Assembly: GCA_963701075.1 (NCBI GenBank) | Contig: OY969559.1 | Location: 544,001 to 608,000 of the forward strand | DNA: 64,000 nucleotides | Source: an uncultured Nitrososphaerota archaeon | Lineage (GTDB): Archaea > Thermoproteota > Nitrososphaeria > Nitrososphaerales > Nitrosopumilaceae | Direction of reading: 5' to 3' | Shown: positions 20,257 to 34,868 of the stretch, piece by piece | Position numbering within the stretch: the stretch's first letter is position 1 | How the letters are laid out: the number at the start of each line of letters is the position of its first letter | Program-made: the position numbers and the translations under genes | The notes under the pieces: model-generated | The model's input: only the letters and a program-made list of their open reading frames with translations | What the model was told of the DNA's origin: nothing | Database searches by the model: none

Positions 20257-20439
20257 AACTTTACCATTAATCTCTGCGATAGAACCTGTTGGTTCAGCCA
20301 ATGTATTGCCACAAGCCTTGCATGCAACTGTGGTAGAAACATGGGAATAAACAACACTTTCTTCTCCGCATTCTTTACACTGGACTCGCTGGAATCTACT
20401 TCCTGGTTTTGGGATAAGGATTTGGGCCTTTTTCATTAT
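20239..20439 (-). CDS. rps27e: 30S ribosomal protein S27e
   Basis: PKPGSRFQRVQCKECG...CKACG..LAEPTG; start taken at MKKAQ. Confidence 0.95.
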   Translation of the reverse strand: MMKKAQILIPKPGSRFQRVQCKECGEESVVYSHVSTTVACKACGNTLAEPTGSIAEINGKVLGSAE

Positions 20440-20717
20440 GCAGCAACCAACTCCAACTTTCTTAGTCTTATTCCTGGCACATTCCATTTCTTTTTACATT
20501 CAGGACATGCAAAAATAGGTGTCATCTTCTTTGTAGTCTTTGCCGGCTTGGCTAACTTGGGGAATTTCTGACCGCCGTATCCTTTCTTGTCTTCGGCGTG
20601 TCTTCTTTCACCTATTGCAGAACCTCGTCTTTTTCCTGCCTTGTACAAGGAGACCTTCTGTAGCGTATGTTTCTTACACTTGCGACAGTATCGCCTGATC
20701 TCCTTTGGCATGTTCAT
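20436..20717 (-). CDS. rpl44e: 50S ribosomal protein L44e
   Basis: YCRKCKKHT, GYGGQ, CPEC. Confidence 0.95.
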   Translation of the reverse strand: MNMPKEIRRYCRKCKKHTLQKVSLYKAGKRRGSAIGERRHAEDKKGYGGQKFPKLAKPAKTTKKMTPIFACPECKKKWNVPGIRLRKLELVAA

Positions 20718-20742
20718 AAAAGAAGACGATGGCTGACCGTAA

Positions 20743-20755
20743 TTTAAACATCGCT
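20743..20755 (+). repeat. attL core TTTAAACATCGCT
   Basis: Identical to 33053-33065; lies immediately upstream of the likely integrase start. Confidence 0.8.
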
Positions 20756-20773
20756 ATACCTAATGTCAAGCGT

Positions 20774-21886
20774 ATGTTAAATGAGAACGCACAAACTGAT
20801 ATCGTGGAGAAAAGTTTGCTGGTATTTGAAAAATATACCAGATCTAATGCTACAAGAAAGATGTATCGCTATCTCTTTGTAAGGTTTTTGAATTGGACTA
20901 AAATTAACGATGTGGATGGAATATTACAACTCAAGGAATCCTATCTACAACAATTAGTTGAAGATTATATTTTGTATATGCGAAAACAAATACTGCCAAA
21001 TTCATTCCAGCCTATTGTTGCATCATTAGAATTATTTTTTTCAATGAATGACAAGACCCTTAATTGGAAAAAAATCCGTAAGATGATACCTTCTCCTGTT
21101 AAGAAATCTGGATACAATGCTTGGCAAACAAAAGATATTGAAAAAATGCTTCAGCTTACCACATCCTTGAGAAACAAGGCTCTTCTTCACTTTCTTGCTT
21201 CTACTGCATGCAGGATAGGGGCAATATCGGAATTAAAGATAAAACATCTCTCTGACATGCCTGATAATTGCAAATCGGTATTGTTCTATGAGGGTACAAA
21301 CGAAGAATATGATGGATTTCTGACACCTGAAGCAAGTCAAATCATTAATGAATATCTAAACAAACGAAGAAAGGATGGCGAATATCTTAATGATGAATCA
21401 CCGCTTTTTAGAGCATCATACCAAGTAGGGGTACAAAAGGCTAAACCTCTTTCATTAAACTCGATTACCCAGATATTACACAGACTTGTCAAGCAAATTG
21501 ATACTAGAAAGAGGATTGGAAATAGGTTTAACGTAATGATGGCTCACGGATTTAGAAAGAGATTTGCTACGATCATCAAACTTGACAACAAGATAAGCTG
21601 GTCAGTTGGAGAAAGACTGCTTGGACACAAAACCTATCTTGAACGAGAATATTTCAGGCCAGTCAAGAATGAACTTTTTACAGAATTTAAGAAGATAATG
21701 CCTGATTTGATAATAGACCAGTCGGAGAAGCTAAGAGTAGAAGCACATCTCAAAGATGAACAAATGAGAAGGATAGAATCTCAAAAAGATGGTCTAATTC
21801 AGCAGCTCCAAGAACAGATTAAGGAAAATGAAAAAACTAAGACTAGCGTACAGAAGATATTAAATCATCTGAAGCTGGCATGCTGA
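20774..21886 (+). CDS. Tyrosine recombinase / integrase
   Basis: Catalytic R (ACRIGAI), HGFRK, LLGH, Y (EYF) and C-terminal coiled coil. The ORF track starts at 20729, outside attL; ATG 20774 is preferred. Confidence 0.92.
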   Translation: MLNENAQTDIVEKSLLVFEKYTRSNATRKMYRYLFVRFLNWTKINDVDGILQLKESYLQQLVEDYILYMRKQILPNSFQPIVASLELFFSMNDKTLNWKKIRKMIPSPVKKSGYNAWQTKDIEKMLQLTTSLRNKALLHFLASTACRIGAISELKIKHLSDMPDNCKSVLFYEGTNEEYDGFLTPEASQIINEYLNKRRKDGEYLNDESPLFRASYQVGVQKAKPLSLNSITQILHRLVKQIDTRKRIGNRFNVMMAHGFRKRFATIIKLDNKISWSVGERLLGHKTYLEREYFRPVKNELFTEFKKIMPDLIIDQSEKLRVEAHLKDEQMRRIESQKDGLIQQLQEQIKENEKTKTSVQKILNHLKLAC

Positions 21887-22464
21887 AATACCATTTTATT
21901 TGATACTTGTACGAAGAATTCTCTATGCATTGCAGGATCTGATTGCTCGAGTAGTTCGAATAAATTCTTAATTTTGCTCAAACCTGAATCCCCAAATCTC
22001 TTAATCGTTTTCTCAGTGATTTTTGCCGTATTGCCAGAAATTACTGTTAGTGTCAATATGCGATAGGTCTGGAACCAATCAAGAGTTTTCCTGACCAATA
22101 TTTTCATAAGACTAGATTTAATCTTCTTATTTTCACGAGTATTTTTTTTATGAAAATCTAGTGTGGACTTGACCGTGTCCGTTAATTTATCCAAAATATT
22201 AAGTTCATTTTCTAACCAGTACTGAATACTATCGTTCACCGTTTTAAGTCCAGAAGGTATCCAATACTTGCCTTTTTCTTTTTTTGTTGGTGGTGTAAAC
22301 TCTACTATTCCTTTTTTTACCATTTTCTTAAGATGTTCATTGAAAGTTCTAGTAGTACATTTCTTGATAGTCTGAACTTCATCAAACAATTCGTTGTAAC
22401 GGAAACTTTCTTCTCTAATCAAAGATCTAAGAATTGCATCTTCAAAATCTAAATTTTCACTCAC
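21865..22464 (-). CDS. Winged-helix transcriptional regulator
   Basis: FRYNELF...TRTFNEHLKKMVKKGIV...KYW wHTH pattern; convergent with the integrase. Confidence 0.7.
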   Translation of the reverse strand: MSENLDFEDAILRSLIREESFRYNELFDEVQTIKKCTTRTFNEHLKKMVKKGIVEFTPPTKKEKGKYWIPSGLKTVNDSIQYWLENELNILDKLTDTVKSTLDFHKKNTRENKKIKSSLMKILVRKTLDWFQTYRILTLTVISGNTAKITEKTIKRFGDSGLSKIKNLFELLEQSDPAMHREFFVQVSNKMVFQHASFR

Positions 22465-22514
22465 TATACTTGAGGTATAGCCGATTATTTATTTAACTAC
22501 TGAGATGATGAGTT

Positions 22515-22655
22515 ATGGCACAAATACACATAAAGGATCAAACGATCGACCGCATTGAAAAAATAACAAGAAAAAAATTTACTCGAGGTGGTGATCGATT
22601 AATCAATGAGGTTATTGACATTCTAGAAATGAGGAAAAATAATGAAAACATCTAA
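22515..22655 (+). CDS. Small ribbon-helix-helix-like protein (46 aa, not in ORF track)
   Basis: MAQIHIKDQTIDRIEKITRKKFTRGGDRLINEVIDILEMRKNNENI: beta-alpha-alpha pattern, overlaps the next ORF. Confidence 0.6.
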   Translation: MAQIHIKDQTIDRIEKITRKKFTRGGDRLINEVIDILEMRKNNENI

Positions 22656-22884
22656 GCCTAATTTTCCATTCGAGGATCCTAAGTACATTGATGATTCTAT
22701 TAACACAGAAATATGCCCTTCTTGTAATTTGTCTTTTTCAGAACATACCAACCATGAGATTGTAAAATGTGCATTAGACGAGCTAAGAGGTGGAAAGAAG
22801 CGGACTATTGACTTGACTGATCTGGAAAATAACGAATGGGTATGTGAAAAGTACCCGTCTAATAATCAAAATTGCGATCCATAG
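22642..22884 (+). CDS. Small putative Zn-binding protein
   Basis: CPSC..S.SEH.....C motif. Confidence 0.5.
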   Translation: MKTSKPNFPFEDPKYIDDSINTEICPSCNLSFSEHTNHEIVKCALDELRGGKKRTIDLTDLENNEWVCEKYPSNNQNCDP

Positions 22885-22898
22885 CAAAGAAAGGAGGA

Positions 22899-23063
22899 TT
22901 GAGTACAATATCCACTGATTCATTCTCGAATTTAACAACGATTACAATAACCGCTGAGACTCGCAGGAGATTAGAGGTATTATGCAAGAAAGATCAAGAT
23001 TTTGACAGTGTGATAAACAAGCTTATTTTACTCTCGTCTGACAAATTGGAGGATTTTTGGTGA
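22899..23063 (+). CDS. Ribbon-helix-helix (CopG-like) protein
   Basis: TTITITAETRRRLEVLCKKDQDFDSVINKLI; TTG start with a purine-rich AAGGAGG just upstream; directly precedes the putative rep gene. Confidence 0.7.
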   Translation: MSTISTDSFSNLTTITITAETRRRLEVLCKKDQDFDSVINKLILLSSDKLEDFW

Positions 23064-23890
23064 GTAACGGATCAGTAACACATCGAGGTCACGGATCAGA
23101 GTATGATATTGAACAGTTTTACAAAAGGGCTCTATCTATATGTGAAACTGGAAAGAGACCGTTTTGCTTTAAGGATTTTGATGATATCAGCCCAGGCAAC
23201 TTTAGGCAATATGTTCACAGATCAGGAAGCAAGATAGAGATTGTAAAAAAGGGAAGGCCAACACTGTACAAAGTTAGAGGAATTGAACTTGCAGGCGATT
23301 CCCATAGAATAACGAATAGGGTAACGGGGGTTAATCCAGAATTTGAACATCTACTAGAATCGCTCAGAGACCAACCTCCAATGATTCATGATATTCATCT
23401 AAAATTTGAATCTGAGTTGCATTCTAGTCTTGTTTCTAAAGGGTTATCGGTCAATCCAACTAATCACGCCATAGAGAACATAAGATATGCCGCACTTGAC
23501 AACAATATCAAAACCAAGATCCTGGTGTATCCATATACAACCCAGATTATCATAGGGTGTACTTGCAAACCAATTATCTATGATGCTTCAGGAATTTGGT
23601 CTCTATTTTCATATCTTTCTCAGGTACAATTTCATTTATCAGAACTAACAAACCATCAAGTCGTAATTCCAGAGGTAAAAACATGGATTGTTACACGTTA
23701 TGATTTCAATAAAGATGGTTCGGAATCAGTTATTGGAGGGCCTTTTTGCATGGAATTTCAAGATGTTTCAAATGGACTTATACGATTTTACCTAAAGAAG
23801 ATGCCAAACGGTGAAAGGATTCCAAGACTTGAACAAACTAGGACTCCTAACAAGTCGATTTCAGATATTGTGCAGGAGATCCTGTCGTAA
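23057..23890 (+). CDS. Putative Rep_trans/MOB_T-like replication initiator or relaxase with N-terminal HTH
   Basis: WIVTRYDFNKD, IRFYLK and RLE occur in the same order as the Rep_trans motifs; copG-rep gene order. By-eye inference. Confidence 0.5.
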   Translation: MVSNGSVTHRGHGSEYDIEQFYKRALSICETGKRPFCFKDFDDISPGNFRQYVHRSGSKIEIVKKGRPTLYKVRGIELAGDSHRITNRVTGVNPEFEHLLESLRDQPPMIHDIHLKFESELHSSLVSKGLSVNPTNHAIENIRYAALDNNIKTKILVYPYTTQIIIGCTCKPIIYDASGIWSLFSYLSQVQFHLSELTNHQVVIPEVKTWIVTRYDFNKDGSESVIGGPFCMEFQDVSNGLIRFYLKKMPNGERIPRLEQTRTPNKSISDIVQEILS

Positions 23891-23906
23891 TGAACAATTG
23901 AGCCAA

Positions 23907-24137
23907 ATGACCCCACCAAAGCCTCCCTCGTTTAAAGCTAAAACGGGAAGAAAGACAAAACGTGAAAGGATCCAACAAGACGGAAGATTAATGACAAACG
24001 CCATTCTGGGAGATAGTCCTTGGGAAGCTTCTCTTTACGCAGGATGTGGCTATGAATATGCGGTGAAAAAATTCCTAGAGTTTGGATTCATTTTTGATCA
24101 TAAAACACGACTATGGATCAGGATCAAACGATTCTAA
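23907..24137 (+). CDS. Small basic hypothetical protein (possible HTH)
   Basis: ORF continuing the rep operon; Lys/Arg-rich N-terminus. Confidence 0.45.
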   Translation: MTPPKPPSFKAKTGRKTKRERIQQDGRLMTNAILGDSPWEASLYAGCGYEYAVKKFLEFGFIFDHKTRLWIRIKRF

Positions 24138-24154
24138 GTAAATGTAGAGACTCA

Positions 24155-24385
24155 TTTTTACGTAAAATACGTAAATTTAGGCACGTAATGTTACAGGTTT
24201 TAGGGAATGGAGTCAGGATATGAAATTTTACGAAAAGTTCGTAAATTTAGGCACGTGATTTTACGGAATTTTCACAAAATGTGAAAATTTAGGCACGTGA
24301 TTTTTCACATTTTTGGTGAACTGGAAATAGAGGTTATGAAATTTTACCTATTTTGGGTAAATTTAGGCACGTGATTTTACACATT
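24155..24385 (+). repeat. Array of four hairpin + AAATTTAGGCACGT units (candidate origin)
   Basis: Cores at 24173, 24243, 24285 and 24359, each preceded by a 3-nt-loop hairpin; partial fifth core TTTAGGCACG at 24604. Confidence 0.9.
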
Positions 24386-24745
24386 TTTATGAGTAGAAGG
24401 GGGAATGAAATTTATGAATACAAAACATCGTCCCGAGTTTCGTTCCTAGAATAGGGGGATCACCAGGGAAAAATAGACAAAAAAGAAGGTGTGATACCGA
24501 TCCCGAGTTTTAGATAGCGTTAATGGAAGATATCTACGAAATTTTTGAGTAATTGTGGGGGTACTGATCTGCGTTTTATTATTTTATGTCATATCATCCT
24601 AATTTTAGGCACGAAAATATGGCATCATATGACCGAGGTAAAATTTCTGCTTGAAAGACATACTAACTTCGGTATAAAAAAAGATGAGATACGATCTAGA
24701 ATTTGTGGTCTTGCATGTGTATGATCAGAGATAATTTCTAAAACA

Positions 24746-24916
24746 TCAAACATCAGTACTTTTTGCAAGGTAAATTTTGTCATTTTCTTCTACGAACATG
24801 ATAGTCTCTCCTTCCTGAAGATGATATTTCTCTCTGACCTTCTTTGGTATGGTTACCTGGAACTTGTAGCTTATGGTCGTCATTCCAAGTATCTCTTTCT
24901 TTGAATCCTTTATCAT
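24746..24916 (-). CDS. AbrB/MazE/SpoVT family DNA-binding protein
   Basis: TTISYKFQVTIPKKVREKYHLQEGETIMF; start uncertain (24883, 24916 or 24958). Confidence 0.85.
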   Translation of the reverse strand: MIKDSKKEILGMTTISYKFQVTIPKKVREKYHLQEGETIMFVEENDKIYLAKSTDV

Positions 24917-25090
24917 TATTACTTGCCTTGATTGTAATGAATGTAAAGCAAGATTCATTAATTAGACCCAAGAAAGTAAAGAATTCTTGGAAAGTAAAGA
25001 TAATTTCATTCATGGATTAAGAGATTCCAGAGTTGGGATGAAGATAGAACCGTACCAAGTTCTATTTGTTAAATTTTACAATCGAGAACT

Positions 25091-25744
25091 ATGAAGCTTA
25101 ATCTCAATTATTCTGTCACTAGTACTTGCAAGCTCTGTCATAGGATATGGTGTACAAGCATCTGCTCAGATGACAGGTGGCGGGATCTGTGGTAATCATC
25201 CATGTGCACCAGGAGAGGTCTATCCGCCAAGTACCCCTTCATCAGGAACTGGAATTACAGTCTCAACTGACAAACCGTCATATAATTATGGTGACACCAT
25301 TACCATATCGGGTACAACGAGTGTTTATCTTGGTGATACCCCTCTTACGCTTATTCTAAGAAATCCAGTTGGAAATATTGTCATAGCAACACAACTCACA
25401 GTGGGAACAGACGATACCTTTTCTGAGACTGCGGTTGCTACAGGTGCACTGTGGCAATCTGCTGGTACGTATACAATATCTGCCATATATGGTAACACAA
25501 ACATGTCTGCTACAACCACATTCCAGTTCTCAGGTTCTTCTTTACTCCATCAAGTCCAAGTACTGTACCAAACGCTGGCACAAATGCTACTATTCAACAA
25601 CCACCATCTTCTACCACCCCGCAATCAAAGATTCCCGCTTGGGTCAAAAACATCTTCATCTGGTATGGCAGGGGCAGCATCTCAGACGATGAATTGATAG
25701 GTGCCATACAGTTTCTTATACATCAGGGAATAATCAAAGTCTGA
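25091..25744 (+). CDS. Secreted/surface protein with Ig-like domain and thaumarchaeal C-terminal IPxWVKN domain (two apparent frameshifts)
   Basis: Signal peptide MKLISIILSLVLASS after correction at ~25099; STDKPSYNYGDTITISG; after a shift at ~25542 it reads IPAWVKNIFIWYGRGSISDDELIGAIQFLIHQGIIKV*. Confidence 0.75.
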
Positions 25745-25915
25745 AATTTTTGAATTACAAAACATCAACCTGAATTTCAGAAAACTTGATTCTCTTTGCG
25801 GTATCTATGGCATCACTCATACACAATTAATATGTAATACTAGTAAAAAATCATGATAACGATTACTAATGATTTGTACATTAGAGAAGAAAACTAAACA
25901 GAATTAGTTTTGCAT

Positions 25916-27355
25916 CTACTCAGTAATATAATGACGATTCTTAGGCCACATTTTGAATATTGGTTTATACTTATCCATTTTCAAGTAATTCTTTACAATT
26001 TTTATCTTGTTTTCTAGTTTTTCTGAACCTTGTTGGAATTGTGCATTTTCCAGCATAATGTATAATTCGTCTTTTGTTTTGTTTAAAATAACATATGTTG
26101 CAATAATTATTCTCGCATAATCCATCATCAAGAAGCCAAATTCATCCTTATTCTTGAATCGTTTTTTTATTGCCTTTTCAGTTTTATTACTCATTTTATC
26201 GCCATGAACATATTTGCTTCTTACATCATATGCAGTCAACATATCATCATACACCTTCTTCGAATCTAGTCCGATTAAACCTAATAATTTTGAAGAATTT
26301 AACGCAAATCGTAACTTTTGATCTCCCTCGGATTTAATCAATAATGCTTCGATAGCCATAACTGCATATGATACTGAAATTCGGATTAAATGAATTGATT
26401 TTAATCCATTCATATATCGTGATAATGATATTTCTAGTTCATTATCTTCCCTGTAATGGTTAACTATAGATCTAGTTAATCGTTTTTCCATTACTCCATA
26501 AAATAGCTTAAGATATTCTATCTCATTTTCTTTAATTCTTGCGTAGTATTGTAATCCTGGATCATGATAAAACCCCAATCTATACGTGCCATGAAATGTA
26601 CGTTCTATGTTTGAAGATTTGTTACTTATTCCAATACAATCAGGCGATGATAATTTGAATAATGTAAGAATTAATTCGATTTTTTTTAATGTTTCAAAAC
26701 TGTGATCATATTTCAAATCTTGTTTATACGTAAATTCTAATATGCAAAAACATTGCTCTACTACCTCATTATAATCATCCCATTCCTCTGGTTTAACTTC
26801 GATCTCAAAATCTTTCTTGTTGGCTTTTCTTATTCTAAGATATTTGTTTACGATGATTTCGTTTTGTTCTATCATAATTCCTGAAAGATAAGATGTTGTT
26901 TTGATTATCGGCAGTTCATCTTTAATCGAGTTAATAAGGTATTTCACTAAATTCTTAACATTAAAAAATTTTGTATCATGCTCATAACAAAAAACAAATA
27001 ATGCTTTTTCTACAAACGCTCCAAAAAGAAATTTATCTTCGTTCTTACTAATTTTGTTTATTCTTTCATTCATTTTTTTGTAAAAATCATCTTGTTTCAA
27101 ATCATTATGTGCAACGTAAAGGAGTCGATCCCAATCAATTTTTTCTTTAGTATCTGTAAATCTGTCAATAGAATACCATTTGTGAAACTTTGACCATCTT
27201 ACATTTGGAATTTTATAATATTTTTTACCCAGGGGGTGGTTTCTTTTTTTCAAATCTAGAACTAAATTTCGTAGATATGTGGTATACCTATACAGATCTA
27301 TCTCAATCTGTTTTAATTCTTGATCTGATGAAGACATGGAGTCATTATCTTTCAA
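25916..27355 (-). CDS. HEPN-domain protein (ApeA-like), putative anti-viral RNase
   Basis: AIEALL and RSKYVH (Rx4H) HEPN motifs in the C-terminal half. Confidence 0.75.
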   Translation of the reverse strand: MKDNDSMSSSDQELKQIEIDLYRYTTYLRNLVLDLKKRNHPLGKKYYKIPNVRWSKFHKWYSIDRFTDTKEKIDWDRLLYVAHNDLKQDDFYKKMNERINKISKNEDKFLFGAFVEKALFVFCYEHDTKFFNVKNLVKYLINSIKDELPIIKTTSYLSGIMIEQNEIIVNKYLRIRKANKKDFEIEVKPEEWDDYNEVVEQCFCILEFTYKQDLKYDHSFETLKKIELILTLFKLSSPDCIGISNKSSNIERTFHGTYRLGFYHDPGLQYYARIKENEIEYLKLFYGVMEKRLTRSIVNHYREDNELEISLSRYMNGLKSIHLIRISVSYAVMAIEALLIKSEGDQKLRFALNSSKLLGLIGLDSKKVYDDMLTAYDVRSKYVHGDKMSNKTEKAIKKRFKNKDEFGFLMMDYARIIIATYVILNKTKDELYIMLENAQFQQGSEKLENKIKIVKNYLKMDKYKPIFKMWPKNRHYITE

Positions 27356-27463
27356 TTGTTTTTATTGATAAAGTAATCTGAAGTTTTAGAATTAGTATAA
27401 CAATAGGCCAGAACAAAATTGGCCTGATTCAAGATTATATACAATGTTCTGCTTCGTAATCTA

Positions 27464-28834
27464 TTGAGCATATTTTCTAAAAAAATCGATTCAATAACCC
27501 GAGAAGACTTGGAATCTCTGATAAGAGAATCTGAACGAGAGAGCATACAACTTGATTATAAACAAGGCATAAATCCTTCAGAAAATGGCAAACATGATTT
27601 GGTGAAGCTGGTAGTAGGAATGGCAAACACAGAAGGGGGATACATAATTTTTGGAATTAATGAAGACAAACAAAAGGGAATACCGACTAAAATGGAAGGA
27701 ATAGATCCATCTGTTGGAGGACAAAAGGTTGACGAATGGCTAGAAAATGTCATCAATCCCCACATAAGTCCAAGAGTTGTAATTAGGATTAAAACTATAG
27801 CACTTGAAACCAAAATAGCATTAGTTTTGTGGGTACCGCAAAGTACAAGAAAGCCGCACATGTCGACCCTTGATAATGACTTTAGGATTTACCGACGTTA
27901 TAATACTCAGTCACTGCCTGCCAGTGAAGGAGAATTAAGAGAAATGTATCTTGCATCTAATAAAATTGAAAGAGTAAGAGAAGATTTCATATTGAAAAAA
28001 AATCTTACTAATGTCTCAAATAAGGAATTTGGTCTAACAACAAATTCTGATAACCTCCTGTCAAAGCTTGGCATAGAAAATAAGTATGAATATCCAATTG
28101 TGACGCTTTCATCCTGCCCTAGGTTTCTAGAAGAGAAAGTAAATTTCTCATCTGACACTTTTCAATCATGGCTGTCGAAAAATTCTTTTACAAAAATCCA
28201 GAATCAAGATATAGAAATTTTTCGTTATAATCCACCTATTCTAGAACAAAATTCGATAACAATATTGCGTAAGATGGGAATGAATGATAAAATATTGGAA
28301 TACCTTGAAATCCAAAGAAATGGATTTATTGAACAATGTAAAACATTACAACTTATTCATTCTGATGGAAACAAATTTGTATTAAATCTTGGGAGATTAA
28401 CTGTTGCACTTTGGGCATTTTTATATTATGTAAAAAATTTCTATCAACAAATTGATTATTTAGATGAATTTTCTATTTTTATGTCCATTAGAAATTCTAA
28501 TCGCCTTGAACTATGCGGTTTGTTAGGACTATCCGAAAGAGGACACCCGTATTCTACTGAATCAGATGACCTTTTTAGATATCTGGATATTACCCCCATG
28601 TATACTGCCACTACGTATGATCCAGTTTTTCCTACTACTCAAAAGGAACAAAATCTATCACATTCAGTTAATTTAACTATGAATAATCTCACGGATGAAG
28701 AGATCTATGACATTGTGAAAAATTTTGCAGATAGGATAAGTAATGCATTTGGTTTGGCTAAAGCACATTGTTATAATAACGATGGAACATTTGTTAATAG
28801 ACACTTAGACTTTTACAACAAACTACTATCTTAA
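27464..28834 (+). CDS. Schlafen AlbA_2-domain protein with uncharacterised C-terminal domain
   Basis: RESIQLDYK, MANTEGGYIIFGINE, KPH, IYRR. Confidence 0.85.
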   Translation: MSIFSKKIDSITREDLESLIRESERESIQLDYKQGINPSENGKHDLVKLVVGMANTEGGYIIFGINEDKQKGIPTKMEGIDPSVGGQKVDEWLENVINPHISPRVVIRIKTIALETKIALVLWVPQSTRKPHMSTLDNDFRIYRRYNTQSLPASEGELREMYLASNKIERVREDFILKKNLTNVSNKEFGLTTNSDNLLSKLGIENKYEYPIVTLSSCPRFLEEKVNFSSDTFQSWLSKNSFTKIQNQDIEIFRYNPPILEQNSITILRKMGMNDKILEYLEIQRNGFIEQCKTLQLIHSDGNKFVLNLGRLTVALWAFLYYVKNFYQQIDYLDEFSIFMSIRNSNRLELCGLLGLSERGHPYSTESDDLFRYLDITPMYTATTYDPVFPTTQKEQNLSHSVNLTMNNLTDEEIYDIVKNFADRISNAFGLAKAHCYNNDGTFVNRHLDFYNKLLS

Positions 28835-28881
28835 CGCAGTATACTTGTGATCATTGAAGAAGATTCAATTATTTATGACAT

Positions 28882-29184
28882 TCAAACAGGTCTCAGAAGC
28901 TCTTCGATTTTTGTGAGGATTACTTCATTTTCCACAGTTTTTTTTCTTACCTCTTCATTCATCTGTTCTTGATTTTTCTTGTATGTTCTGAGTAATTCAT
29001 AAATTGAAAGCCTTTCCTTTGCACGATCCTCAGTGGTTTTGAAAAGATTATGATCTGCCCAGAATCGTTGGTGACATTTACTACACATCGGTTCAGATAC
29101 TCCAGATGAAAAGACACGTTTACACGTAGGTCTGGGACACTGGACATATCTTGGTTGATGGGTACGCATCCAAATACCGCCCAT
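28882..29184 (-). CDS. Zn-ribbon + coiled-coil protein
   Basis: CPRPTC...CSKC, helical C-terminus. Confidence 0.65.
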   Translation of the reverse strand: MGGIWMRTHQPRYVQCPRPTCKRVFSSGVSEPMCSKCHQRFWADHNLFKTTEDRAKERLSIYELLRTYKKNQEQMNEEVRKKTVENEVILTKIEELLRPV

Positions 29185-29245
29185 GTTATATAGATAACAT
29201 TTTTTTGTATTTTAATGTTATTGGATAACAGAACTTTTAATATAT

Positions 29246-29266
29246 ACACTACTAGTATAGTAGTGT
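29246..29266. promoter_or_regulatory. Inverted repeat operator ACACTACTA-GTA-TAGTAGTGT
   Basis: Perfect 9-bp arms between a TATA-like TTTAATATA and ATG 29281; extra half-site AGTAGTGT at 29272. Confidence 0.6.
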
Positions 29267-29280
29267 GGAGAAGTAGTGTA

Positions 29281-29923
29281 ATGCAAATAGAATTAGATCA
29301 AAAGAAAATAGCAAGAAGCGGAGGAAGCACCGTATTGTACCTATCTAATGATGCTAAAAAATACATTCACGAAGGTGACCTTGTAGATTATCAAGTAATT
29401 CTAGACGATAACGTAGTAAAGATATTCATAACAAAAAAGCTGTTCAATTTTACTCTTGAAGATATCAAGAATCTCGTAAAAAAACATGAATTTGAAATAG
29501 AATATGATAAAACACTAGATCATATTCTGGTATTTAACGCAATAAAAAATCATCTTTCATTAAGACTATACTAAGAATGTTAATGAAAAAATATCTCCAG
29601 CAAATATTGCACTTTCTTTAACATGGCCTGACGTGAATGATTATGAAAAATACAAACATGTAACAGAACAGATAGATCAATTAAAAAATAAATACGATTT
29701 GATTACAAGAACTGAAGGAGATTTGGATGTGATTAACATACTGAAAGAACCATCTAGATATAAAGTGGACATAGTAGAGGCATTAAAACTACTTAAGAAA
29801 GCTGGCAAGAAAATAGGCTTATCAGCTGTAATTCGATTTGATGATGGAAAAGACGATCTTAATCGTATATCTAGTGCCCTCAACGAATTAATGACCTTAG
29901 ATTCCAAGATCTCTTTTCAATAA
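29281..29923 (+). CDS. AbrB-like N-terminal domain protein (apparent frameshift at 29565)
   Basis: KKIARSGGSTVLYL...EGDLV AbrB signature; removing the extra base in AG[a]CT fuses it to ORF 29633..29923. Confidence 0.7.
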
Positions 29924-30511
29924 GTGTGCTAGCCGTAACATTATAGGTGTAACCGTAGGTTTTCTATCTAGACCGCTTATTTCTGCTTCAATGATAGTGT
30001 CAGATGAAATAATTTTCTCATCCCCATTAAGTTTAGAAACTATTATCACTACAACACGAACTCCAATTTTTTTAAAGAATTGCTTCCATTCATCAATCTT
30101 TTCAGTTTCATCTTCTTTACACACTATTATTCCATGTGTAGCCACTTTGAAAATCATCTCTGATTCTTTTGATATACGACCTGGGCCATCGCCAATTGCA
30201 ATAACATGACTTTGAGAAAGACTCTTAAATTCTTGAACCGCGGTTGTTACCTCTTTTGTTGTAACATTCGTTCGTTTACGGGAATCTCTATCTTCTTTTG
30301 TCATATTGCCAATGATAAATTCAATTGTTTGAGACCATAAATCCAATTCTTTGTGATCTGCATCTACGGCTATATCTTGTAAGGCTCTTGTAATACGTAC
30401 CGCAAATGTACTTTTTCCAGAATTGGGTGGACCACCAATAATGATTCTAATTGAGGATTTTTTCTCTATGCCTAGCTCTTTTCTGTGTTTGTGATGACTC
30501 ATCTTAACCAC
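29897..30511 (-). CDS. P-loop NTPase resembling the ATPase domain of Csx3-AAA fusions
   Basis: IIIGGPPNSGKST Walker A, IGDGPGRIS, ATHGIIV, W..F motifs. Confidence 0.65.
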   Translation of the reverse strand: MVKMSHHKHRKELGIEKKSSIRIIIGGPPNSGKSTFAVRITRALQDIAVDADHKELDLWSQTIEFIIGNMTKEDRDSRKRTNVTTKEVTTAVQEFKSLSQSHVIAIGDGPGRISKESEMIFKVATHGIIVCKEDETEKIDEWKQFFKKIGVRVVVIIVSKLNGDEKIISSDTIIEAEISGLDRKPTVTPIMLRLAHLLKRDLGI

Positions 30512-30557
30512 AATGAGTGTAGTAATCCTTTATATATTAGGTTTTAATGCCTATAGC

Positions 30558-31607
30558 ATGGCTGTTAGGGCCAATTCACGCACACGAAAGATGGAAATTC
30601 TGCAATTTACCTTACTTGCATCTGAACTAGTTTGGCGGGGGCGAACTCCATTTTTTGCCATAAATTCCAACAGATTTGGTAAACCATGGGAAGTTGAAAT
30701 AAACTATGGCCACGGTGAAGTAAAAGATATCCGAAAAAGAACAGAAAACGGTCCAAGCCGAAAGATCTTCCGGCAGTACCTTCCAGAACTACTCAAAGAG
30801 CGACTACTTACTAGAATAATTACAAAAGATAAAAAATCAAAATATTATTCAATTACTCCTCTTGGAATCATACATTTAATAAAATCTGAAATGTTTTTTG
30901 ATGGCGTCAGATATCCTCATCCTGAACGTAATTATGTATTATTGAGACTGGAAACATTTGCTGAACAAAATGTAAAGCCCTATAAGAGTATAATTTTTGA
31001 AAATGAGAAATTTTTCAAGTCTGATATCGATTTATTGAATGATATGTGGAAATCTCATCTTATTAGTCTTAGAGAAGAAATAACGCATGTTTTTACAAAC
31101 GTTGACATAATACAAGAACAAATGAATACAGAATATGAGTGGAATCACATGGAATACTATATTACAAATGGATATTCTGACGGAAATAGAATAAGATTAG
31201 CAAGCTTTGATTTAGAAAATAATAACTATGTAAAAATAACAGAATTAAATCAACTTCCTTCAGTAAGAGGCAGTGATTCTTCTGAACGTGAAGATAACGC
31301 TTTGATCCTAGATTCAGATCAGTTTAATCATTATCTGGCAAATCTTATGCTTTGTTCATTAATTTACGATAGTATAATGGCACACTATGATATAGCTAGA
31401 TATAGAAAAGTAAAGTGGGGTAGGAAAAAAGAATCAACAAAGACCATGGATGAGGAATTCAAAGAAGATCTGAAAAATATCCCGGAATATTTTTTGCGAA
31501 TACTCTTCTTATTTAGTAAACATATTTTACGCATAACGCAAGACCAATATCAATTAACAGTCAGATTTAGTGATAATTTGACTAAAACTCAATTCATAAA
31601 AAACTGA
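30558..31607 (+). CDS. Hypothetical protein with N-terminal winged helix
   Basis: QYLPELLKERLL...KYYSITPLG wing motif; TTTATATA at ~30528 favours ATG 30558. Confidence 0.6.
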   Translation: MAVRANSRTRKMEILQFTLLASELVWRGRTPFFAINSNRFGKPWEVEINYGHGEVKDIRKRTENGPSRKIFRQYLPELLKERLLTRIITKDKKSKYYSITPLGIIHLIKSEMFFDGVRYPHPERNYVLLRLETFAEQNVKPYKSIIFENEKFFKSDIDLLNDMWKSHLISLREEITHVFTNVDIIQEQMNTEYEWNHMEYYITNGYSDGNRIRLASFDLENNNYVKITELNQLPSVRGSDSSEREDNALILDSDQFNHYLANLMLCSLIYDSIMAHYDIARYRKVKWGRKKESTKTMDEEFKEDLKNIPEYFLRILFLFSKHILRITQDQYQLTVRFSDNLTKTQFIKN

Positions 31608-31625
31608 TTAGTATATCATGATTCC

Positions 31626-31772
31626 ATGATCGGTATACTTCCTTATTTTTACTTAAGGAAGAGCGACAGAAATCGAGCTAAAAAATGTTTGATATTAGGA
31701 ATTGTTGCTATTCCTGTCTCGTTTGTGGTTGGATTGTTCGCTATTGTAGCGAGTATTTTGATCAATCATTGA
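31626..31772 (+). CDS. Small membrane protein or gene fragment (48 aa, not in ORF track)
   Basis: MIGILPYFYLRKSDRNRAKKCLILGIVAIP..., one hydrophobic helix. Confidence 0.4.
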   Translation: MIGILPYFYLRKSDRNRAKKCLILGIVAIPVSFVVGLFAIVASILINH

Positions 31773-31878
31773 CCCATACTCAAAGCCCACTTGGACTAGA
31801 ATATCTGATCTAAAATTTATAACTATAATTTAGCTGGTTTGTAATTGTTTATAATCAATTAGTAATTTAGTTATCAAG

Positions 31879-32505
31879 GTGTACCATAACTACTCTTTAC
31901 TAACTGTCAAAAAATTATTTAGTCTTCATAATAATCACTGTGCATTTCTTGGATGTAAGCAGGAATTAATTACAACAGACAAGAAAATCAATGTTTCAGA
32001 TATATGTCACATTGAAGGAGGAGAAGAGGATTCACCTCGATATAATCCTAGTTTGGGTCCAGCAGAATTAGATGATTACGAAAATTTAATCTTAATGTGT
32101 AAGGTTCATCATAAAATAATCGATACTGATACCATGACCTTCACCGTATCTTATTTAAAAAAATTAAAGATTGAACATGAGAAAAATCAAAATGGACAAG
32201 TATATTCAATTTCAGATGAAGTGGCAAAAAGGATCATTGCAGAACAAATGACTCAAGTAAATGTGAATGCGGGTTCTGGAATTCAAAATATTACTCAAAA
32301 AGGTGATATTATTCATTATGATAATCCTCCTTCTTCAGATGGTCCTTTGATGATATTTTATCAGATACCTAGGAATTGCATATTATGCGGGAGTATGAAT
32401 ATTCGACATATGGAGGGATTTCAAATGAATGGTCGTGAACGCAGAAATAGAACATGTAGAGATTGTGGTGCTATTATGATTTTAGCGGACGGAATAGGAG
32501 GATAA
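31879..32505 (+). CDS. HNH endonuclease with C-terminal Zn ribbon
   Basis: CAFLGC, ICHI, PRY, NLILMCKVHHKIID; C-terminal CILCG...CRDCG. Confidence 0.85.
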   Translation: MYHNYSLLTVKKLFSLHNNHCAFLGCKQELITTDKKINVSDICHIEGGEEDSPRYNPSLGPAELDDYENLILMCKVHHKIIDTDTMTFTVSYLKKLKIEHEKNQNGQVYSISDEVAKRIIAEQMTQVNVNAGSGIQNITQKGDIIHYDNPPSSDGPLMIFYQIPRNCILCGSMNIRHMEGFQMNGRERRNRTCRDCGAIMILADGIGG

Positions 32506-32622
32506 ACTCCAACTGCCATCTTTCAATCATGCCAAAATTAGTTAGACGAATTATTGTTATAGATAGACGGTAAATACGAACTAAGAATTAATTTAAGTAG
32601 TAAATCCATTACCTAGAACTGC

Positions 32623-32928
32623 TTGAGCTGGAAGTCGTTTAGAGATGATTATCTTACTAATCTTTTCATCATTTGGCACATAATATTAACTGGAATCAAT
32701 CTTCTGAGTCATGCTTCACCATTAATCAATAGTTTTAGAACCTTGCTATGGGCCAATGATGGATGGCTTGTAATAATAATGCCAATTGCGATAACGGAAA
32801 TTTACTACCAAGTTATGATGATACGAAACAATCCAGAATTTTTTGAAAAAGTCAGACATGGAATAGAAAATATGCTCTTGCCCCGTTTATTTGGGCACGA
32901 GTTTTTACAGATATCATTCTTGCCTTAG
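32623..32928 (+). CDS. Small membrane protein
   Basis: Two hydrophobic segments. Confidence 0.4.
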   Translation: MSWKSFRDDYLTNLFIIWHIILTGINLLSHASPLINSFRTLLWANDGWLVIIMPIAITEIYYQVMMIRNNPEFFEKVRHGIENMLLPRLFGHEFLQISFLP

Positions 32929-33052
32929 TAGGAGTTTCCCTTATCATAGGCGACCAATTTCCTGGTTCCATCATAGACATAAACAAGTATAATTTTTGGG
33001 ACGTGTTCTCATATGTGGCTATTTTACTTTCTTTAACTTACGTTTTGCAAGG

Positions 33053-33065
33053 TTTAAACATCGCT
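33053..33065 (+). repeat. attR core TTTAAACATCGCT
   Basis: Identical to 20743-20755; just upstream of adenine deaminase. Confidence 0.8.
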
Positions 33066-33094: not shown

Positions 33095-34868
33095 GTGAAG
33101 GCCAGCTCTCTTGCATCTATGATTGGTTCACTAAACAAAGTTGCGATGGGCGAAAAAAAAGCAGACATTGTATTGAAAAACTGCAAACTTGTCAATGTAT
33201 ACTCGAGAGAAATAATACCGCAAACACAGATTGCCATTTTTAAAGACAGAATTGCATATGTTGGAAAGGACGCGTCGCATACTGTTGGTGAAAAAACTGC
33301 AGTCATTGACTTGGAAGAAAAATTTGTCACTCCGGGATTTGCAGATTCACACATACACATGGACCAGTACATCATGCCTTCTGAACTTGCAAAACATTCT
33401 CTTCTATGTGGAACTACTACATTATTTTCAGATCCAATTGATATTGTAAGTGTTTGTGGATACCGGGGCTTTAGGGAATTTGTCAAGATGACAGAGAATC
33501 TACCAATAAGGGTATTTCACATGATACCAGGCGGTCTTCCAGTTGACAGAAAGTTTAGTCATGCAAGAACAATATCACAGACAGAACAGAAGAGGGCCTT
33601 TGAATTAGAAAATGTTCTTGGCATGGGGGAAGTATTTTCCTGGACCAAGGTCACAACGCGGGATCCAAATACAATTCAAAGTCTAAATTACATTCTTGAA
33701 AATGATGGAATCATAAACGGTCACACTGCAGGTGCAAGCGACAAGAAGCTGAAATGCCTACATTGCATCTGGAATATTATCATGTCATGAGCCAATAGAC
33801 TATGATCAAGTGATGGAGAGACTAAGGCTTGGAATGTGGGTTATGATGAGGGAAGGATCGATACGAAGAGACCTTGATAAGATAATACCAAACGTGCTAT
33901 CTCAGAAGACCTATTTTGATAGGCTGATGTTTTGCACTGATGGAGTAACTCCAAAGGATCTCTTAGACTTTGGCATGATTGATCATTGCATCAGAAAATC
34001 AACATCTATGGGAATGGAATTGATAGATGCGATAACCATCGCATCTCGAAACTGCTTTGAATATTATAAGATGGATAAAGACTTGGGGGGAATTGCTCCG
34101 GGAAAGCTTGCCGACATTCTAGTTTTCGGTGATCTAAACAAGGTAAAACCGGACAAGGTCTTCGTGGGAGGAAGATTAGTGGTGGCTCACGGTAAACCTG
34201 TATTCAAAAATGCAAAACTAGCAATCTCAAAATGGATGACAGAAACGGTAAAAGTACGACGTAAATTTACCGAGAAGGATTTTGTGGTCAAGAGCAAGGA
34301 AAATTCTACTCAAGCCCTTGTAATCCGACTAGATACTGAAATTATAACAAGAAAGGATCATGAAGAGCTTTGCGTAAAGGACGGAAATGTAATTGCTTCT
34401 CAAGAGAAAGATGTCTGGAAGGTGGCAGCAATAGACAGAACATATGGTACTGGACAGCAATGTGTTGGATTCTTGAAGAACTTTGGTGGTGAGATTGGAG
34501 CCTTTGGATGTACGCAGAGCTTTCATGAAAATGACCTGATCGTAATTGGCTCCAATGAAAAGGACATGGCCTTTGTGACAAACGATCTAGTAAAAACGCA
34601 GGGTGGAATGGTTGCTGCAAGAGATGGAAAAATAATCTGCAAATTTGAAATGCCTGTTGCAGGCCTAGCCTCCAAATTACCCCTTGAGGAGGCAGTAACC
34701 AAGTACAAGGAGGTTGACGAAAAGCTAGTTGAGGCAGGATGCAGATTTAAACAACCTCATCTAATTCCGCTCTTTCTCCCATTTCTTGCATTACCGGAGA
34801 TTAGAATCTTGTATAGCGGTATAGTAGATGTTAAAAACAGAACTTATCTTAAAATTTTGGATGGATAA
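33095..34868 (+). CDS. ade: Adenine deaminase (apparent frameshift at ~33751)
   Basis: PGFADSHIH, GMGEV, NGH, SCHE (after correction), MREGS, FCTDG, IAPGKLADI; GTG start at 33095 assumed. Confidence 0.9.

Follow-up and report, generated by a model that had tools for sequence, protein, structure and literature searches.

Cryptic Integrated Elements and TBP-Fold Initiators

The closest described relatives of the element considered here are the 'cryptic integrated elements' (CIE) of Krupovic et al. 2019 (PMC6563490). As presented in that paper, CIE have a median attachment site (att) of 17 bp, with some of 13 bp, and are typically smaller than 20 kb; intergenic targets account for 15 of its 68 integrated elements, and a diphthamide biosynthesis gene is among the thaumarchaeal integration targets that it lists. 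According to the same account, CIE lack a signature gene, and in many cases no candidate replication protein can be named; it also reports most thaumarchaeal integrated elements as being without a recognisable replication gene, and cautions that winged helix-turn-helix (wHTH) proteins in elements of this type may be regulators. The element described below measures 12,310 bp from core to core and includes the gene for a 277-aa protein around which most of the analysis turns. It lies between rpl44e and ade in a 64,000-nucleotide stretch from an uncultured Nitrososphaerota archaeon of the Nitrosopumilaceae (contig OY969559.1 of assembly GCA_963701075.1, positions 544,001 to 608,000). This whole stretch is called the window, and all coordinates refer to it.

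The second system needed for comparison is the initiator RepSNJ2 of the pleolipovirus SNJ2, which founds the family Rep-Arvir (DUF7845/PF25227; Wang et al. 2026, PMC13107129). According to that paper, its catalytic domain has the fold of a TATA-binding protein (TBP), is distantly related to Rep_trans and is not recognisable as such by sequence; a wHTH domain is fused to it, and a tyrosine and acidic residues are essential. In SNJ2 a hairpin origin lies downstream of the rep gene, and the paper reports that the origin features of Rep-Arvir are conserved neither in position nor in sequence. A Rep-Arvir replicon has been made into haloarchaeal shuttle vectors (PMC13107129). The main text of that article contains neither Nitroso- nor Thaumarchaeota.

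The element in the window is a member of the CIE class. It has a tyrosine integrase at one end, end repeats that match a single copy at empty sites, and no viral structural or conjugation hallmarks. Its short att, intergenic target, size, wHTH and ribbon-helix-helix (RHH) genes and restriction/defence cargo are also like those of CIE, as is the frequent want of a recognisable replication protein. In one respect it is unlike the class as described in PMC6563490, where no signature gene is given: a single protein family, that of the 277-aa protein, accompanies the integrase in most related loci. The original prediction did not recognise the backbone as that of a described thaumarchaeal family. 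The class has been described, so that part has to be given up; the 277-aa family as a signature or replication gene is what we did not find described, with the supplementary tables of PMC6563490 and PMC13107129 as further places that may bear on it. The element class is therefore already known, and the candidate initiator is a variant of the Rep_trans/Rep-Arvir kind for which we found no description.

Insertion at a 13-bp Core

The ends of the element are marked by an exact 13-bp direct repeat, TTTAAACATCGCT, with its left copy (the attL core) at 20743-20755 and its right copy (the attR core) at 33053-33065, just where it had been predicted. These are the only two copies in the genome of 1,915,938 bp, and a reversed-pattern control gave none. 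A 13-bp repeat alone is little proof, since 183 distinct 13-mers recur within the 64-kb window. Among repeats of at least 11 bp, TTTAAACATCGCT is the only one with a copy within 100 bp upstream of the integrase start.

Empty sites in relatives document the insertion. With the left flank as the query against 40 relatives, loci were recovered from 11 congeners (L002-L012). In eight of these the left flank runs through a single core copy straight into the right flank (...GACCGTAA-TTTAAACATCGCT-TTAATA...), so that rpl44e stands beside ade and the breakpoints fall exactly at the repeat. Two of the eight come from unpublished genomes (L003 from G019 and L005 from G011); the conclusion holds without them because the six published genomes suffice. 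One empty site (L002) has flanks 95% identical to those in the window. The insertion is recent, since genomes with flanks of 93-95% identity are without the element. The element is thus a real, precise and recent insertion at the 13-bp core between rpl44e and ade, complete between its two repeats as had been proposed; its genes are not conserved as chromosome in the relatives, and none of the empty sites has a breakpoint off the repeat. Integration is seen directly in these comparisons; excision we infer. The element has a G+C content of 33.6% compared with 38.4% for the rest of the window, and no tRNA was found in the window.

The other three congeneric loci differ. In one the contig stops short of the site. 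In G008 about 3.3 kb of other genes occupy it (L015, 1054-4352), among them genes for an HTH-membrane protein and a 748-aa protein; this insert has no integrase and only one core-like copy. In G013 (L016) the core is missing and about 460 bp of other sequence is present. With different DNA in these two genomes, the rpl44e/ade spacer may be a hotspot.

A Recurrent Backbone

The backbone of the element reads integrase, divergent wHTH gene, then RHH, zinc-finger and RHH genes, the 277-aa gene, a small open reading frame (ORF) and a hairpin array. The order is as first described, with two changes in gene boundaries: the integrase starts at the ATG at 20774, and the first RHH gene occupies 22515-22655.

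Of 401 sampled genomes of the order, 47 encode a homologue of the 277-aa protein (a tally that takes in G000 and the unpublished G283), and these fall into 19 of 82 genera. They are scattered patchily, and among the 11 congeners sampled a single one has a homologue. Sixteen related loci were fetched for comparison of gene neighbourhoods. An integrase lies 1.4-3.0 kb upstream of the 277-aa gene and in the same orientation in 11 of them, so that this arrangement recurs at other loci; in eight a divergent gene of 259-430 aa stands between the two, and small Zn-ribbon ORFs frequently precede the 277-aa gene. In a metagenome-assembled genome with an 80% identical 277-aa protein (L053), the order is the same, integrase included. 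Behind the same backbone, other loci (L039, L040, L045, L046, L038 and L051) have type I restriction-modification, double-GTPase/GAP1 and caspase-TPR genes. These cargo genes of the relatives show a lineage in which a constant module is followed by defence or conflict systems. The element therefore belongs to a recurrent thaumarchaeal lineage with an integrase, a divergent wHTH gene, Zn-ribbon/RHH genes, the 277-aa protein and variable cargo of defence type.

Another relative is the element in L037, with a 277-aa protein 71% identical and an integrase 46% identical to those of the window. Its core is apparently TAATTGTTTAT, located just upstream of its integrase, and the element adjoins a diphthamide-synthesis gene (PF01866, 1.1e-70), a target listed in PMC6563490. 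The window's element has, upstream of its HNH gene, a 42-bp stretch (31812-31853, plus strand) with 86% identity to the right end of the L037 element on its inner side, including the presumed core. This stretch may be the relic of an older att arm, and the HNH and membrane-protein genes that follow on its right may have been added later. For another locus, L043, a 12-bp repeat had suggested a minimal element made up of the backbone only; the conserved flank in relatives shows a larger element, and that reading was dropped.

No capsid, terminase, VirB4, MCM or primase family was matched in the element when all 17 listed ORFs were compared with Pfam and ten-ORF subsets with PHROGs, PADLOC and NCBIfam, the same outcome as in the first inspection, which had seen no capsid, VirB4 or MCM/primase motifs; small ORFs to which no function is assigned stand beside this result. 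A provirus or satellite was rejected on the ground that structural genes were not found.

The 277-aa Protein

The gene at 23057-23890 (plus strand) encodes the signature protein of the lineage, with an N-terminal wHTH and a C-terminal TBP-like domain; it is a candidate Rep_trans-like tyrosine nickase or initiator. The protein has no match in Pfam, PHROG, PADLOC or NCBIfam and no usable match in the ESM Atlas, and a profile of its family finds nothing below E 0.2 among PDB sequences. All of its named database relatives are annotated as 'hypothetical' and come from Thaumarchaeota. A profile search of 1.84 billion representatives gave 670 cluster representatives at E<=1e-3 and 158 at E<=1e-30, and about a ninth of the sampled genomes of the order have a homologue. 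Ten longer, fused relatives have no Pfam domain.

An AlphaFold model was made from a 15-sequence alignment, with a predicted local distance difference test (pLDDT) score of 82. In it residues 14-77 form a wHTH (VIA Z 8.3 over 62 residues, rmsd 1.8) and residues ~101-275 a pseudo-twofold alpha/beta domain. Foldseek against the PDB places TBPs at the top (E 3.8e-5, prob 1.00), and the rolling-circle initiator RepSTK1 (4cij) is also found (E 5.4e-3, prob 0.95). VIA gives a similar picture at moderate strength, with TBPs at Z 7.0-7.3 over 131-141 residues and an rmsd of about 4, and Rep_trans initiators at Z 5.5-5.6 over 142 residues (RepDE, 4cwc: Z 5.6, rmsd 4.9). In a library of viral structures the matches are giant-virus TBPs and Inoviridae proteins, one of which is named 'GST REP'.

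Conservation was counted in 145 diverse representatives of the family. The near-invariant residues are H111 (142/144), P172 (137/141), W210 (136/139), D220 (138/140), Y245 (136/138), K247 (128/137), R257 (135/137) and E259 (133/137); in percentages, H111, D220, Y245, R257 and E259 stand at 97-99% and K247 at 93%. All of them are in the TBP-like domain, and the wHTH is less conserved. To judge from the strand boundaries of the model and beta-strand geometry, R243, Y245, K247, R257 and E259 should be on the same side of one hairpin. A near-invariant set that is polar and centred on a tyrosine suggests an enzyme. The order acid, acid, tyrosine, acid is that of D46/D142/Y191/E214 in RepDE and of E25/D207/Y283/E303 in RepSNJ2, and Y245-x-K247 resembles the YxxK motif of Rep_trans. 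The label 'rep-like' given to this gene at the outset is consistent with the TBP-like/Rep_trans-like fold and the near-invariant tyrosine, to which a catalytic role can be ascribed only provisionally. No HUH motif is present and the fold is a different one; an HUH-type Rep was rejected for these reasons.

Compared with Rep-Arvir, the 277-aa protein likewise has a TBP-like domain of catalytic type fused to a wHTH and a conserved tyrosine flanked by conserved acidic residues in the same order, with a hairpin element downstream of the gene and integrase-bearing temperate carriers. The pattern of structural matches (TBPs together with Rep_trans/Inoviridae) is also the one reported for RepSNJ2 in PMC13107129, down to the accession A0A2N9QVX7. 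Unlike Rep-Arvir it does not match PF25227. The wHTH alone takes up residues 395-469 in RepSNJ2, whereas the 277-aa family has about 280 residues in all and no third domain; it is this shortness and the wHTH at the front that set the family apart. The tyrosine motif is YxK here and KHYYM in Rep-Arvir. Turning to Rep_trans (PF02486; RepD/RepDE 4CWC, RepSTK1 4CIJ, RepC of pT181), the C-terminal domain shows a tentative structural likeness (Foldseek prob 0.95; VIA Z 5.5-5.6 with 142 residues aligned), and in both a tyrosine is followed by a lysine. The combination of an inverted repeat and an adjacent site also recalls the origin described for pT181. In contrast to Rep_trans, there is no sequence similarity, a wHTH has been added, the host is an archaeon, and there are four tandem hairpin units in place of one nick hairpin.

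The Hairpin Array

Downstream of the 277-aa gene, at 24145-24392 (plus strand), there are four units, each a hairpin (8-bp stem, 3-nt loop) followed by the box TTTAGGCACGT(G/A)A and, after it, the stem arm for a third time. A fifth, degenerate copy of the box, TTTAGGCACGAAA, is found at 24604-24616 (plus strand). The array was noticed from the start; its hairpins stand and show compensatory changes, and the count is now four full units and one degenerate box. Starts of successive units are 70, 42 and 74 nt apart, and the units overlap. With this irregular spacing and the overlap, a CRISPR array was excluded. The array has no match among Rfam families.

The stems vary between units in a way that keeps them paired. 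In the first helix all 32 of 32 stem cells pair, and three of the eight pairs change on both sides between units; the covariation score was reached by one of 500 shuffles, and in slid controls 6-50% pair. If the third arm pairs with the middle one, as it can, the box comes to lie in a 14-nt loop, and in this alternative helix 86% of cells pair, with three covarying pairs. Folded as single-stranded DNA, the array is far better than shuffles (z -4.8 and -5.9). Since the stems vary while pairing is kept, the DNA (or RNA) of the array appears to be recognised in hairpin form, like the nick sites of rolling-circle replication.

Among the fetched loci, the box TTTAGGCACGT(G/A)A occurs in this element only. 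The array is specific to this element, because the box is unique to it and only L050 has another array. In L050 four copies of GAAAAATTTGATG lie around the stop codon of the 277-aa homologue, from ~100 bp before it to 480 bp after it, with the last three 147 bp apart.

Possible Roles of the 277-aa Protein

The explanation that we find best for the locus as a whole is an integrated mobile element that replicates in the manner of Rep_trans, and we rate it somewhat above an even chance. The element entered the chromosome by site-specific recombination at the 13-bp core. The integrase would excise it, and the 277-aa protein would then act as a Rep_trans-like tyrosine nickase. Its N-terminal wHTH could recognise the repeated box or the palindromes of the array 250 bp downstream, and the TBP-like domain could cut one strand at an extruded hairpin by means of Tyr245 and a metal site (His111, Asp220 and Glu259). 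The cut would start rolling-circle replication of the circle, comparable to that by RepSNJ2 (Rep-Arvir) and RepD (pT181-type plasmids). The small RHH, AbrB and wHTH proteins may set a switch, and the cargo (Schlafen-type, HEPN, HNH and AAA ATPase) may protect the host against other mobile elements. For this mechanistic part (excision, nicking, replication, switch and defence), we place the likelihood a little short of even. The same hesitation applies to the 277-aa protein taken by itself: that it works like a Rep_trans-type nickase is quite possible, with the balance tipped slightly to the other side. More tentative still, though a real prospect, is the wider proposal that it founds a third branch of TBP-fold tyrosine nickases, so far undescribed, next to the Rep_trans of bacteria and the Rep-Arvir of archaea, and that it is the enzyme for replication or transfer which has been missing from a large proportion of the CIE of ammonia-oxidising archaea, with the hairpin-plus-box units as a multi-site origin recognised as extruded DNA.

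A number of observations weigh against a replication role. By profile the protein belongs to neither Rep-Arvir nor Rep_trans: 15 family members gave no Pfam match to PF02486 or PF25227 at E<=1, PF25227 was absent from this genome (E<=1) and from the 401 genomes of the phylum (E<=0.01) with a control genome positive, and hhalign against RepC-type sequences, a set of low diversity, gave a probability of 0.4%. The order of domains is the reverse of that in Rep-Arvir, where the catalytic domain is followed by a central wHTH; here the wHTH (14-77) precedes the TBP-like domain (~101-275). Structural scores are middling, with the non-enzymatic TBP above RepDE (Z 7.3 vs 5.6), and a VIA Z under 8 can reflect a common arrangement. 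The presumed equivalence to the residues of RepDE and RepSNJ2 is one of order only, and the residue at position 216 is Asp in the protein of the window but His in 123 of 139 relatives. Four tandem hairpins like nick sites are unusual for a rolling-circle origin; the units may instead be binding iterons, a single-strand origin or regulatory sites. A comparable array near the 277-aa gene is absent in 15 of the 16 related loci, L050 being the only exception, and none was seen by eye in L053 or L055. A circular form was not in evidence, the records of plasmid and phage collections and IMG/VR yielded no homologue, and two longer metagenome contigs with homologues (L055 and L056) have no terminal overlap.

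Several of these points would fit a non-replicating integrative island in which the 277-aa protein is a DNA-binding regulator of the integrase and cargo, acting through the boxes or palindromes, and the element spreads by chromosomal inheritance with occasional excision or transfer. TBPs, the best matches of the C-terminal domain, bind DNA without catalysis; the wHTH is clear, the gene sits among the RHH, AbrB and wHTH regulators, there is no sequence link to any Rep family, and the caution of PMC6563490 about wHTH proteins applies to elements such as this one. Against such a regulator, the most conserved residues are His, Asp, Tyr, Lys, Arg and Glu, all in the TBP-like domain, a pattern that suggests an enzyme more than a DNA saddle. 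The integrase is also accompanied by the 277-aa gene more constantly than by any other gene, even where the elements diverge widely, and a core function in replication or transfer fits this better than an element-specific regulator. The regulator is accordingly unlikely in our estimate, but is the strongest of the alternatives. If the protein is an enzyme it might still be a relaxase, that of an integrative mobilisable element, nicking the array as an origin of transfer (oriT) so that a co-resident conjugative element transfers the strand. The Rep_trans family includes relaxases of integrative conjugative and mobilisable elements, as indicated in PMC9371924 and PMC7563843, NicK is named as an example of PF02486 in PMC13107129, integrative-conjugative elements exist in Thaumarchaeota according to PMC6563490, and the element has no transfer genes of its own. 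No coupling protein or VirB4 was among the ten recurrent gene families scanned in the 16 related loci, no conjugative element was seen in the genome, where none was sought, and the structural basis is as weak as for a Rep. We consider a relaxase improbable, and note that relaxase and initiator roles can coexist in one protein. Least probable by far is a decayed remnant, an island left immobile by an old integration. Two frameshift-like defects near or inside the element (in ade and in the signal peptide of the 175-aa ORF described below) and the lack of an observed circular form would suit it. Both core copies are identical, the integrase and all backbone ORFs are open, and genomes with 93-95% identical flanks but no element speak for recent insertion, all of which makes decay hard to credit.

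If the Rep_trans-like reading is correct, a small, conserved integrase-plus-initiator module with a defined 13-bp target in a conserved, presumed promoter would explain persistence after excision, and the 277-aa gene would be a marker for such elements in metagenomes. The range of the Rep_trans-like fold would then take in a further archaeal phylum, in a different domain layout. We know of no isolated plasmid and no genetic system in Thaumarchaeota; the integrase with its att site and the candidate replicon would be parts for a first vector for ammonia-oxidising archaea. Elements of this lineage act as carriers of putative defence nucleases.

Target Spacer and Neighbouring Host Genes

On the left of the element rpl44e occupies 20436-20717 on the minus strand (PF00935, 1.2e-25), and on the right the adenine deaminase gene ade starts at 33119 on the plus strand (PF01979, with PF13382 in the second part). 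The core is located in the short spacer between these two genes, which is conserved in the genus. The spacer must be under constraint, since the core and neighbouring bases are identical in genomes with flanks only 73-77% identical. Archaeal promoters have a TATA box ~26 nt upstream of the start site. The core opens with TTTAAA, at ~28 nt from the start codon of rpl44e (one strand) and again at ~28 nt from that of the integrase at 20774 (other strand), and this position suggests a promoter element. With the core duplicated at both ends, each of the two host genes keeps its own upstream sequence, and the integrase would have a TATA box in both the integrated and the excised state. The TTTAAA in this interval (20717-20774) may be a shared bidirectional TATA box, in which case the sequence on the side of the B recognition element (BRE) of the integrase would differ between integrated and excised forms.

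Beside attR, ade is split into two ORFs (33119-33790 and 33810-34868) by a 1-nt insertion at about 33751, outside a homopolymer, relative to two close relatives. In G008 it is a single ORF of 590 aa. The split gene of the window is either a real pseudogene or an assembly error.

Integrase and Small Backbone Genes

The tyrosine integrase (20774-21886, plus strand) has 370 aa from the first ATG inside the element and is intact in the integrated state (PF00589, 2.7e-10; PHROG integrase, 2.4e-13). It also matches the XerA-like model of NCBIfam at 3.9e-15, under the cut-off of that model. Its frame is uninterrupted, and the family matches from Pfam, PHROG and NCBIfam are full-length. The ORF as such starts at 20729, in host DNA; the first in-frame ATG within the element is that at 20774, and all matches from the three collections lie downstream of the core (residues 22-301). 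No ATG is present in this frame upstream across the attP junction. The integrase is not of the SSV type, since the gene starts at 20774 and is whole; a self-splitting integrase was dismissed with the core 19 bp upstream of the ATG. In the excised form the integrase frame would be open for ~72 codons upstream of the core without an ATG, and this stretch (32850-33065) encodes two hydrophobic segments.

The divergent wHTH protein (21865-22464, minus strand; 199 aa) is a probable regulator with weak matches to wHTH families of Pfam. In related loci its positional counterpart, oriented the same way, has a wHTH-like N-terminus, as judged by eye. Between it and the RHH operon, at 22464-22480, there is a perfect 6-bp palindrome with a 5-nt spacer (CTATAC TTGAG GTATAG). 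From its place in the divergent promoter region, this palindrome is likely an operator. On the plus strand there follow a 46-aa RHH-like protein read from the sequence (22515-22655; weak DUF7557 match, E 0.035), an 80-aa Cys-rich protein resembling a zinc finger (22642-22884; weak zf-C2H2_5 match) and a 63-aa RHH protein of DUF7557 (22872-23063; PF24434, 2.1e-5, just under the cut-off). Between the 277-aa gene and the array is a small basic ORF of 76 aa counted from the ATG at 23907 (23907-24137, plus strand; the longest ORF starts at 23811), with no family match.

Cargo

Defence genes had been proposed as the cargo. An intact Schlafen motif, a protein with a HEPN motif and an HNH nuclease are indeed encoded, and with the AAA ATPase they make defence a reasonable inference as to function. 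No complete known defence system was recognised by PADLOC.

The Schlafen-type nuclease (27464-28834, plus strand; 456 aa) has an AlbA_2 domain at residues 26-153 (PF04326, 1.2e-16), in which E26-x4-D31-x-K33 can be read as the motif Ex4(E/D)xK. This motif is given as the catalytic one of prokaryotic Schlafen defence nucleases in PMC13056530, and the protein resembles them in both the PF04326 domain and the N-terminal position of the motif. It is unlike them in that the C-terminal ~300 aa match nothing and no PADLOC model matches it. HEPN nucleases have the motif Rx4-6H in a helical domain. The 479-aa protein (25916-27355, minus strand), with homologues in 10 of 401 genomes, has a HEPN-like C-terminal domain in which R379, S380, H384 and G385 (R-S-x3-H-G) are invariant in eight of eight sequences. 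The top five VIA matches of this domain are four HEPN-domain proteins and Csm6 (Z 7.4-7.9); Foldseek gave nothing at E<=0.001. In L071 (1483-3650) a homologue of the 479-aa protein is located divergently beside a Schlafen/AlbA_2 homologue, as in the window. This is the case in one of nine other loci, for which the flanks extend only 1.5 kb, and the HEPN-like and Schlafen genes may be a two-gene unit.

To the right of this pair are a small Cys-rich protein of 100 aa (28882-29184, minus strand; weak IBR match, 5e-4) and two small ORFs of 119 and 96 aa with no function assigned (29215-29923, plus strand). A P-loop ATPase of a type known in fusion or association with Csx3 follows (29897-30511, minus strand; PADLOC Csx3 (associated) 1.9e-23 and Csx3-AAA 3.4e-20, with a weak AAA match in Pfam), and divergent from it is a 364-aa protein without matches (30513-31607, plus strand). 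The HNH nuclease (31879-32505, plus strand) has a C-terminal zinc ribbon and matches HNH_2 (7.7e-5), PADLOC PDC-M68A (1.1e-24) and HNH effector models. The last ORF is small, hydrophobic and membrane-like, and has no family match (32623-32928, plus strand).

At the left end of the cargo is a small DNA-binding protein of AbrB/MazE type (24746-24958, minus strand; PF04014, 4e-8), with an 85% identical homologue in the same place in L037. It is followed by an Ig-like, secreted-looking protein (25170-25697, plus strand) with homologues in L037 and L044. A stretch like a signal peptide is in the frame of this 175-aa ORF without a start codon, and an ATG at 25091 is one base out of frame; the start region (25091-25172) is a possible second frameshift.

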